Shown here piece by piece: positions 30,001-33,000 of a DNA stretch of 64,000 bases. Source of the DNA: a plasmid. The position numbers are program-made. The first letter of the stretch is position 1. Every line of letters begins with the position of its first letter. The DNA is taken from the NCBI RefSeq assembly GCF_056712565.1, contig NZ_JBWXXM010000003.1; one strand, 5' to 3'.

Positions 30001-33000
30001 CTCTACACCTAACGCTTACATTTTATTTACAGCGTTTGATATCTTCCTCGCCTTTAACGCCTTTAACGCCTTTAACGCCTTTAACGCCTTTAAGGGGGGA
30101 AGATAGAGCAACTCACCGATGATGAATAAAGTGGACGAAGAGACGATAACTACACTCCCATCCAGGGGGGGGCTTTTTTTGTGGTACTGTAGTGTGGGAG
30201 TAAGTTCGGGTCTCATATTGAATGAGGCGATTGCGAGCTGCCTTTCATCGAAAACTAATGTCCATTGTCATTGTATTGTCTGACTCTATCTCGTAACAAG
30301 TCTTTGACACAAAGTTTTATATTTTTATCAAAGTGGACATGAGGGGAATTAAATTTGTGATCTTTTTCAAATAATGTGTTCTTGATAGTAGATTCTGGTT
30401 AGTGATATCTATTAACAATATATTAAATTTCTTTTGTATTATCGCTGATAAAACTACTGTATTGGTATACTATATATTATTGAGTAACAGGAGATATCAC
30501 TATGAAGAAATTTTATCAATTTAGGGATGAACAGCGAAAGGAGCTTGAACAACATGATTTTTATAGTTTGATTTCTTCAGATTGTATAGCGTTGAAAGAT
30601 AAACTATTATTTGCTCCTGTTATGGCTCATTTCATAATGAACTTCAGAGACATGAATAAATGGGTTATCAGGTTTGATAACAATGATAATGAATATAAAT
30701 CTGTTATAAACGGTGGAACAATCGAGGATGAAACACATTCAAGATTGTTTCTGGAAGACTGGAGGAAACTATATATAGATGACAAACTTAACTGGAAAGC
30801 AAGTGATGTTATATACTGGTTGTTTATTAGTCGAGAAATGGAGTGTTTCCGAAAATTTGGTATTGATTTTATGAGACTTTGTGTAGATGATGGAGGAGAC
30901 CCAATACTTCGATATTCTCACTCCGAGTCAGGAGAAACTTGCGGTAATATATTCTTTTCAAGAATTAGTCCTATTGCTGATCAAGTTGCCAATCATTTGG
31001 GAATATCACTCCGTTATTTTGGAACATTTCACCTTAATCTTGAAAATGGACATGTATGGAAGTCAGAAGGTGTTTTTGAAAATATAGAGTTGTCACCAGA
31101 TTCTTATAAGAAAATGGCTACTCTATCAAAGAGAATGTTTGATATATTTGAAGGAATTCATGACTCTTTTTATAATTACCTGTCCAGTTATGTTCTTAAT
31201 GGAAGTCATCCGTCATTTTTTGAATCATTACCTGTAGGGAAAAATGTTGCACCTATATACCCTGAATTTGTGATAGAAAACAAAAGCCATAACGATGGTA
31301 GACATATTGAACATATAAACAATTACCTGGAAAAAATATCGAGTCATGAGTTCTTTAAATGGCTGGTTAACACCTCAATAGACCCTCAATTGAAATTGAA
31401 AAGTTTCATACCTCTTTGGATTGTTGATATTATGGGGTATAGAGATATTAATAAATATGTTTTTACATATGAACAGCCTGAATCAGAAAGTGAAAAGATT
31501 ATAAATGATTATGCATTACACTTGTCAGAGCATAGCCGTTTATTTTATCATGACTGGAAGTCACTTCAACTTGATGATATGTTACGTTGGAGTGCCAGTG
31601 ATACTCTTGAGTTTATTTTTCTTAATTCAGATATGGATATGCATAGAGAAAATATAGTTAAGTTTTCTTTGTTCGGATTAAAACACAGAGATCCTGTTAT
31701 CAGGTTCTGGTTTATGATGATACTGGAGTTAAGTGGAAAAGAATTTTTCTCTCATGTTGGAGATATAGCTTTACAGGTGGAAAGTAAATATAATATTTAT
31801 CTCCCATATTTATGTGGACGCCATGCAACAGAAAATGAGCATGAAGCATATAATAATATGTATGAGCATTTTATGGTAAAGGAACTTAGCCCTGAACAAA
31901 GTGATCTAATAATACAAATTACAGACATGGTTATGCGGTCATTATTGAATAATTTGGATATCTCATATCGATATGTAGTAAATAATTTATTGGCAGCTCG
32001 TTAGAAGAACAGCATTGGTATGACTCTGATGCTCCTTAAAATCCCACTTTTCAGAGTGGGATTTGTTTAATGCCCAGAACAGGGGGAATTTCCATTCATG
32101 CCCAAAAAATATTTTGATGTCCTCTCGCCAATTCTCGCGCTCAGTCCTTCCTGAAAAACCTCAGAATTCACGTAGCGCATCGCCGCTACTGCATCCATCA
32201 AAAAAAATGACAGCTTTTTTAATCATCTTGTGTTACTCAACTTACTGAAAAATGTGATTTATGAAAATGCCGCCGTCGGCATCAAGCAGTTGGCCAGCGC
32301 AACCGGCTGCATCGACCGCAACAAAAAAACTGAAAGAGAAAGCCCCTCAAATGAGGGAGAAAAAAAGGAAGTGCAGTCAACGAGAGGCGTAAAAAACCCG
32401 ACTGGTGAGGTCGGGTTTTAATACGGTTCCGGTTCTGAGTTGGTGGCTCTGACCGGAGGAAGTCACTCTACACCTAACGTTTACATTTTATGCACTCAGC
32501 CGCAGTATTGCAACTAACTGTGGTTAAGGCACCACATTTAGTTGTGTATCGTGGGTTTTATATACCTTATAATCATGAAGTTAGCCGTGTGGTGTGGCTT
32601 CTTCCTCTGCCCTTCCCGTTTATGCAGGTATGAACGATTTTAAAGTCCTGGCTGAACAAACAGGTGGTGCTGTGTTTAGTGCTCTGGCAGGAGGAAGTCA
32701 CTCTGCACCTAACAATGCGAGAGAACCGTTGTGACAGGCAGTGTAAGAGCAAGCAACGGTGATTTCCTCCAGTTTTACTGGAGAAACGGATGATTAATCT
32801 GTTAATCATCGTTCTCAGGGCTGTGGTCGCCGTTGCAAACGCGCTGATTGCAATTCTGGAACTGATTCGCCAGTTCATCGACTGATGACAGCGGAAACGT
32901 AACTAAGGACAGGAAGTGAACCGCTTCCTGCCCTTTAACGTACTGTGATATTTTTCAAAAAAACTCACCAATATTCTCCTCGGCAGAAATGACATAACTC

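Follow-up and report, generated by a model that had tools for sequence, protein, structure and literature searches.

What does a plasmid gain from the short interval between positions 32389 and 32885 of the DNA studied here, a stretch of 64,000 nucleotides (nt) from contig NZ_JBWXXM010000003.1 of assembly GCF_056712565.1, called the window in what follows? An earlier note, made from the raw sequence, had seen in this interval an unannotated DinQ/TisB-like type I toxin of 31 codons and a divergent small RNA (sRNA) complementary to the 5' untranslated region (UTR) of the toxin messenger. We are highly confident that this interval is occupied by a type I toxin-antitoxin module, agrB/dqlB, which belongs to the dinQ-like family and is carried by an IncFIB plasmid of the ColV/pECOS88 type, and most likely a system of post-segregational killing, or addiction. 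This reading is carried by the family membership of both genes, the RNA duplex that joins them and its covariation between plasmids, the homology of the whole locus to a chromosomal relative, and the thermodynamic compatibility of the toxin leader with a known RNA switch.

Two genes of a known family

The open reading frame (ORF) at 32790-32885 encodes the peptide MINLLIIVLRAVVAVANALIAILELIRQFID, which matches the NCBIfam model NF041473, "DinQ-like type I toxin DqlB", with 72.4 bits (cutoff 35), residues 1-31 lying on model positions 1-31. Against the DinQ model itself, NF041472, the peptide scores 25.1 bits, below the cutoff of 30, and aligns at the C-terminal LELIR region only. Pfam has no match to this peptide or to a second DqlB peptide of the window, so that NCBIfam alone recognises them. 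The grand average of hydropathicity (GRAVY) is 1.88, and the gene is under purifying selection, with a pooled ratio of non-synonymous to synonymous polymorphism (pN/pS) of 0.18 over 13 distinct homologous coding sequences. The peptide is a predicted membrane toxin, by analogy with the homologues of plasmids pOXA-48 and pOXA-484, for which toxicity has been shown.

On the opposite strand, the Rfam model RF02891, AgrB, matches at 32389-32477 (-) with 64 bits (gathering score 40) over model positions 1-84 of 84. The stem TCCGGT/ACCGGA and the terminal GC hairpin followed by six U, both announced from the raw sequence, can indeed be read there, the terminator being CCCGACCTCACCAGTCGGG and then six T. 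The predicted minus-strand promoter is present as well, with TTGCAA at 32513-32508, a spacer of 17 nt and TAAAAT at 32490-32485; a general promoter scan independently listed the same site, and the -35 hexamer aligns with an identical TTGCAA upstream of agrA in Escherichia coli K-12. From the spacing to the -10 box and the homology to K-12 agrA/agrB, transcription would start at the 5' end given in Table 1. RefSeq places a "hypothetical protein" of 55 amino acids, WP_000638861.1, at 32254-32421 (+), antisense to agrB and across its terminator. No family model matches this protein, and the call is probably spurious and hides the unannotated sRNA.

The likeness to TisB and IstR that had also been pointed out holds for the geometry, but nothing was found beyond it: AgrB is the sole Rfam family matched at the locus, IstR having no match at E<=1 in 30000-36000, and no match to a TisB family appears among the NCBIfam or Pfam results. 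The wider proposal of a toxin of this type with a divergent sRNA is borne out by the two family scores, by the homology to K-12 dinQ/agrA and by the covariation of the duplex, and a scripted check of the sequence recovered every feature that the earlier note had listed where that note had placed it.

The locus aligns end to end with the gor-arsR interval of K-12, which holds agrA and dinQ, at 65% nucleotide identity. The order of the parts is the same in both: first the body and terminator of the agr RNA, then the agr -35 TTGCAA, the toxin -10, the +1 GTTAGC, the motif AAGTCCTGG where dinQ is processed (+44), the antisense site, GTGACAGGCAGTG, the hairpin of the Shine-Dalgarno (SD) sequence, the start codon, and the stretch directly past the stop codon. 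The K-12 system, dinQ/agrA/agrB (PMC3567139, PMC5066626), resembles that of the window in its four UTR elements, in the position of the antisense site, 75-76 nt ahead of the start codon, and in the presence of a second, mismatched agr paralogue. The differences are just as clear. The DinQ peptide has 27 amino acids and not 31, and DqlB is below the cutoff of the DinQ model; the proximal agr copy, agrA, is the mismatched one in K-12, whereas in the window the proximal copy is well matched; and dinQ is chromosomal with a LexA box at its promoter, whereas the window locus is on a plasmid and has no promoter LexA box.

Distribution and previous descriptions

A query of 601 base pairs (bp) that spans the locus has matches of 100% identity in pECOS88, a conjugative IncFIB plasmid of E. 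coli S88, and in many ColV-type plasmids of avian pathogenic and extraintestinal pathogenic E. coli (APEC/ExPEC); 83 PLSDB plasmids carry the region with an identity of 99% or more. A more sensitive search finds related sequence in at least 5000 PLSDB plasmids, with Escherichia, Klebsiella, Salmonella and other hosts, and among complete E. coli genomes 1244 of 5426 have it, nearly always plasmid-borne.

In the identical plasmids, RefSeq already annotates the ORF at 32790-32885 as dqlB, under accession WP_000609147.1. The description of the locus as unannotated therefore fails for the toxin and stands for the sRNA: agrB is absent from the pECOS88 RefSeq record, and is the sole part of the module to be so. 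Nor does the belief that no plasmid-borne member had been described survive, since the module belongs to the DqlB/AgrB family of plasmid addiction systems, which is already described. The dql family received its name in 2016, and genes of natural Enterobacteriaceae plasmids were explicitly part of it (PMC5066626). In 2025, the DqlB of pOXA-48, an IncL plasmid, was shown to be toxic; its agrB was essential in transposon sequencing (Tn-seq) and sufficed to rescue cells after plasmid loss. Of 15,775 typed PLSDB plasmids, 3310 were counted as carriers of DqlB homologues, the share among IncF plasmids being 4.2% (PMC12365149). In the same year, the locus of the IncX3 plasmid pOXA-484 was found to be toxic, to be neutralised by agrB, and to stabilise its plasmid (PMC12317039).

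These two modules belong to the same NCBIfam family as the one studied here, and share with it the plasmid location, the divergent agrB and a UTR complementarity of about 33-35 nt. DqlB of the window is identical to the pOXA-48-type peptide at 25 of 31 residues, and at 29 of 31 to the DqlB of the IncX3 plasmid that we fetched, whose allele may not be that of pOXA-484. The replicon differs, IncFIB of the ColV/pECOS88 type as against IncL and IncX3, and so does the recognition sequence of the duplex from that of the IncX3 class.

A duplex that covaries between plasmids

The first 24 nt of the sRNA (complement of 32455-32478) had been proposed to pair with 32690-32713 of the toxin UTR. That pairing exists, with 23 Watson-Crick pairs and one G:U (a single A/G difference), but the real extent of the complementarity is longer: it covers 32681-32713, or 33 nt, with 30 Watson-Crick pairs, 2 G:U pairs and 1 mismatch. 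It is far beyond chance. RNAduplex puts the duplex at -67.8 kcal/mol, where 500 shuffles have -27.6 +/- 3.5 and a minimum of -41.8, and within the window the underlying repeat is detected by blastn-short with E ~1e-6.

The comparison of this locus with its relatives relies on a panel of 16 diverse plasmid loci, from IncX1/3/4/5, IncI-gamma/K1, IncFIA/FIB, IncN and IncL/M plasmids. Rfam AgrB adjoins the toxin gene in 13 of the 16; the fetched IncL/M and IncN loci (L015-L017) gave no match to it at E<=0.01. When the first 22 nt of agr are set against the UTR site in 15 loci, 95.8% of the cells are paired, as against 39-46% in controls where the partner is slid by 1-3 columns, and 15 of the 22 core base pairs show compensatory double changes. 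The target always lies 71-77 nt before the ATG. Cognate partners have a mean duplex energy of -60.2 kcal/mol, non-cognate ones of -42.5, and the agrB 5' ends with their UTR targets can be sorted into about seven recognition classes, between which the predicted cross-pairing is weak, in what is a small panel (loci L003-L018).

A probable four-element switch in the leader

In K-12, Kristiansen et al. (PMC5066626) described how the full-length dinQ mRNA is kept translationally inert: element 1 of its UTR is paired with element 2, and the SD hairpin is made of elements 3 and 4. Without the first 43 nt, element 2 pairs with element 3 and the SD opens; when agrB sits on the element 2 region, the SD hairpin re-closes in vitro, translation is blocked and a substrate for RNase III is made (PMC5066626).

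The dqlB UTR has the same four elements, with the mutually exclusive pairings 1:2, 2:3 and 3:4 by which the dql family is recognised, as judged from folds and from an alignment of K-12 with 13 plasmid loci. The hairpin between CTCCAG (32767-32772) and CTGGAG (32778-32783), in which the SD GGAG (32780-32783) had been said to be buried, is present with a loop of 5 nt, and the GGAG sits 6 nt before the dqlB ATG. Between loci, the two arms of this stem covary, as CTCCAG/CTGGAG, CTCCAT/ATGGAG and TCCCTT/AAGGGA; likewise, the mRNA 5' end, GTTAG, GTCAG or GTTGG, varies together with the 3' part of the target, CTAAC, CTGAC or CCAAC. In the partition function of ViennaRNA, the probability of the SD hairpin is 0.98 in the RNA that begins at +1, falls to about 0.32 upon any 5' truncation beyond +19, and is back to 0.98 when 32690-32713 is blocked, values that are compatible with the switch.

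The 5' end of the dqlB mRNA (GTTAGCCGTGTGG..., 32580-32611) resembles the 5' end of AgrB (GTTAGGTGTAGAG..., 32478-32445 on the minus strand), and both pair with the same site. The full-length messenger would, in effect, carry its own "antitoxin" in cis.

Taken together with the work on dinQ, these elements suggest the following course of events. The dqlB mRNA, about 360 nt long from 32580, would be translationally inert at full length, its 5' end paired with ~32686-32713 and its SD locked in the CTCCAG/CTGGAG hairpin. Removal of the 5' end, which in dinQ occurs by processing at +44, would free element 2 (GGAGGAAGTCAC) to pair with the anti-SD GTGATTTCCTCC; the SD would then open and the 31-residue membrane peptide would be made. 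AgrB, an RNA of about 89 nt from the divergent promoter 54 bp away, would pair through its first 33 nt with 32681-32713 and so remove element 2 from play, whereupon the SD hairpin would re-form, the duplex being also a likely substrate for RNase III. In segregants that have lost the plasmid, the labile sRNA would decay before the toxin mRNA, and the cells would be killed. The processing step, the RNase III cleavage, the toxicity and the addiction phenotype are in this scheme those of the homologues in the literature, and may be expected here by analogy.

The earlier note had suggested a different mechanism, in which AgrB would occlude a ribosome standby site, as IstR-1 does on tisB, in place of acting on a structural switch. 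Standby-site occlusion is the documented mechanism of tisB, and the resemblance is real: the tisB/istR-1 and zorO/orzO systems also have a small hydrophobic toxin, a long 5' UTR that needs processing and a divergent sRNA that acts in trans and binds a long way upstream of the SD, and in the window the target, 76 nt upstream of the ATG, is distant from the SD, with the divergent geometry of tisB/istR-1. Neither system, however, has any kinship with the window module in sequence or RNA family, as the missing Rfam IstR match (E<=1) also indicates. More to the point, the target contains GGAGGAAGTCAC, which is complementary to the anti-SD element, folding predicts a switch, and for dinQ both SHAPE (selective 2'-hydroxyl acylation analysed by primer extension) and in vitro translation support the re-closure of the SD hairpin upon agrB binding (PMC5066626). 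With dinQ documented as a four-element switch combined with RNase III cleavage (PMC5066626), we favour the switch as the likely mechanism here, and give standby occlusion hardly any credence.

Promoter and leader of the toxin gene

The consensus TATAAT reported at 32568-32573 is present, and is conserved as TATAAT, TATACT or TACAAT in 13 plasmid loci. By homology to the dinQ +1 (GTTAGC), the transcript would start at 32580, which would give a UTR of 210 nt where about 215 nt had been estimated.

A possible leader ORF of 34 codons had been pointed out at 32630-32734. The ORF exists, but neither its presence nor its frame or length is conserved: the closest relatives (L003, L004 and L006) and other loci either lack its ATG and frame or have them shifted, and the ATG-initiated ORFs listed for 15 UTRs vary in length between 18 and 52 codons. 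We do not retain it as a conserved coding element; the nucleotides that are conserved in its vicinity correspond to the processing region of dinQ at +44.

Could the module instead be an SOS-inducible stress toxin like chromosomal dinQ, repressed by LexA, with the peptide made only after DNA damage? The founder of the family, dinQ, is LexA-regulated (PMC5066626), and the window contains CTGGCTGAACAAACAG at 32648-32663, the sole CTG-N10-CAG nearby, in a 20-mer identical to a site of plasmid pTF2, close to dqlB, that was predicted to be a LexA box and has a heterology index of 11.64 (PMC12211044). That motif, however, occupies +69 to +84, inside the transcribed UTR and not at the promoter, and belongs to a stretch conserved as RNA sequence (AAGTCCTGG...CAGGTGGTG). 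As for the LexA box that K-12 has across the dinQ -10 (CTGTATGATTATCCAG), the window shows CCTTATAATCATGAAG in its place. Induction of DqlB was not detected in the pTF2 study (PMC12211044), and the plasmid homologues act as addiction modules (PMC12365149, PMC12317039). With no box at the promoter, LexA control at that place was rejected; the motif within the UTR leaves the SOS hypothesis a faint chance, and an addiction module is the reading that we retain.

Points that weigh against an addiction module

Several observations count against this reading, or reduce what can be drawn from the evidence above. Despite its consensus -10, the dqlB promoter has no -35 that the promoter scan could recognise, and the hairpin 3' of the gene has a weak U tract, not a clean one. 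The two pairing sites are paralogous repeats, and co-conversion could account for part of the covariation in the duplex, beside selection on pairing; moreover, the target rows of the alignment were picked by best complementarity, though always at the homologous position. The folding of the switch is inconsistent across the 13 other loci, and was not used as family-wide evidence; K-12 dinQ itself gives modest values in the same folding, with SD-unpaired probabilities of 0.34, 0.45 and 0.06. Because the switch is not reproducible across other loci, K-12 dinQ included, the folding is weak evidence. Toxicity, rescue by agrB and addiction were demonstrated on homologues, that is, on other alleles and other plasmid lineages, and addiction would hinge on the relative stability of the two RNAs.

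Additional copies of both genes

The window holds a second copy of each gene, agrB-2 and dqlB-2 in Table 1. The first, which is agrA-like, retains the -10 TAAAAT and is without the -35 TTGCAA. Its predicted duplex with the dqlB UTR has an energy of -48.1 kcal/mol, against -67.8 for the copy beside dqlB, agrB-1; the corresponding values for K-12 dinQ are -47.2 with the inactive agrA and -62.7 with agrB. No toxin adjoins agrB-2, no cognate target for it is found at high identity in PLSDB, and no intact module was found at its site in related plasmids. That a toxin was deleted there is an idea that two short collinear repeats alone suggest. The exact 48-mer of agrB-2 is present on 214 PLSDB plasmids.

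Directly upstream of agrB-2, at 30043-30095, are five tandem copies of the 9-nt unit CCTTTAACG, of which a single copy is also found after the 3' hairpin of dqlB-1, at 32924-32940. The length of the matches in related plasmids, 755-800 bp, suggests variation in copy number.

The homology of dqlB-2 to the first copy reaches no further upstream than about 9 nt before the ATG. Between the two genes there are 2 synonymous and 5 non-synonymous differences, and among the latter the charged substitutions A11D and L19R fall within the helix. A family UTR, a promoter and an agrB were searched for at dqlB-2, and none was found. Its upstream DNA is a lineage-specific mosaic in about 70 plasmids, part of which matches the 3' ends of tyrosine-recombinase genes. 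The gene is probably a decaying copy beside an IS1 element. A hairpin just upstream of it, at 33658-33695, resembles the agrB-2 terminator.

If two relatives of the module are degraded, the module itself might be an inactive remnant, recognisable by homology and no longer expressed or toxic. An orphan agrB-2 and a dqlB-2 without UTR in the same window, a toxin promoter without detected -35, and the location in a mosaic, IS1-flanked region all point in that direction. Yet all the parts of the module are intact and collinear with those of functional homologues, the duplex is near-perfect, the peptide shares 29 of its 31 residues with the IncX3 DqlB under a purifying selection that extends to the whole family, and at least 99% identity is maintained over 601 bp in the 83 PLSDB plasmids. 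It would be most surprising if the module were such a remnant, and we continue to regard it as an addiction system.

The agrB-1 of the window is predicted to bind the dqlB UTRs of IncX4 (L004) and IncX5 (L006) plasmids at -67.8 and -67.2 kcal/mol, as strongly as its cognate target. It is tempting to conjecture that the diversity of recognition classes reflects selection for insulation between co-resident plasmids, that agrB-1 would cross-neutralise the IncX4 and IncX5 dqlB, and that the conserved orphan agrB-2 would be an anti-addiction or decoy RNA and not debris; we consider this conjecture unlikely.

Surroundings of the module

The alignment with K-12 dinQ covers the sequence just 3' of the dqlB stop but does not run through the hairpin at 32905-32935, which is probably a terminator or a 3' stabiliser of the dqlB mRNA. 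Between the two agr genes lies an ORF of 500 amino acids, 30502-32004 (+), annotated as "hypothetical" (WP_000715081.1), with a GC content of about 31% against about 44% in its flanks and with no match in Pfam, NCBIfam or PADLOC. An IS1A-family transposase with a programmed frameshift (34029-34726) comes directly after dqlB-2, and is followed, in the pECOS88 annotation, by the partition genes sopA and sopB; the toxin-antitoxin locus is thus in the plasmid maintenance region.

The remaining Rfam matches of the window are given at the end of Table 1. One of them is sok, and with AgrB/DqlB beside it the plasmid has at least two type I addiction systems. Like the present module, hok/sok is a plasmid type I addiction system whose full-length mRNA is inert until it is processed; unlike it, hok belongs to a different toxin family, is activated by 3' processing of its mRNA, and is regulated through the overlapping mok frame, with a cis-encoded Sok.

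Table 1. Positions in the window of the parts of the agrB/dqlB module, of the additional copies and of other RNA elements.
Feature	Position	Strand	Basis or remark
agrB promoter (TTGCAA, 17-nt spacer, TAAAAT)	32513-32485	-	Sequence check; promoter scan
agrB, antitoxin sRNA, ~89 nt	32389-32478	-	5' antisense segment, TCCGGT/ACCGGA stem-loop, intrinsic terminator with six U
dqlB -10 box, TATAAT	32568-32573	+	Aligns with K-12 dinQ -10, TATGAT
dqlB 5' UTR, 210 nt (putative)	32580-32789	+	Start by homology to dinQ +1 (GTTAGC)
Element 1, 5' lock; resembles agrB 5' end, pairs with agrB target region	32580-32611	+	Minimum free energy (MFE) fold of the +1 transcript
agrB binding site	32681-32713	+	Contains element 2; 33-nt duplex with agrB
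Element 2, GGAGGAAGTCAC, inside agrB site	32690-32701	+	Folding
Element 3, anti-SD GTGATTTCCTCCAG; pairs with element 2 or SD	32759-32772	+	Folds of full, 5'-truncated and site-blocked RNAs
Element 4, SD CTGGAG (GGAG 32780-32783)	32778-32783	+	Sequence; folding
dqlB, predicted single-helix membrane toxin, 31 aa	32790-32885	+	NCBIfam NF041473; RefSeq WP_000609147.1; pN/pS
GC-rich hairpin, 12-bp stem, 3' of dqlB stop	32905-32935	+	Scan (flagged on opposite strand)
agrB-2, orphan mismatched agrB paralogue, agrA-like	29926-30013	-	Rfam AgrB, 46 bits
dqlB-2, second toxin ORF, WP_000609144.1 (RefSeq)	33708-33803	+	NCBIfam DqlB, 58.2 bits
sok antitoxin	50098-50270		Rfam, above gathering score
traJ 5' UTR/FinP	54240-54351		Rfam, above gathering score
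AS-pc01 antisense RNA	42781-42882		Rfam, above gathering score
ALIL pseudoknot, IS3-type frameshift element	598-714		Rfam, above gathering score

Significance

A reading of the raw sequence, made without tools, correctly recognised a type I toxin-antitoxin module, and the new biology is slight. The toxin is still unannotated or "hypothetical" in many GenBank copies, and agrB is missing from the RefSeq annotation although a curated Rfam model detects it. For the virulence plasmids of the ColV/pECOS88 type, the locus amounts to a DqlB/AgrB addiction module beside sopAB, additional to hok/sok, and as such is relevant to strategies of plasmid curing.

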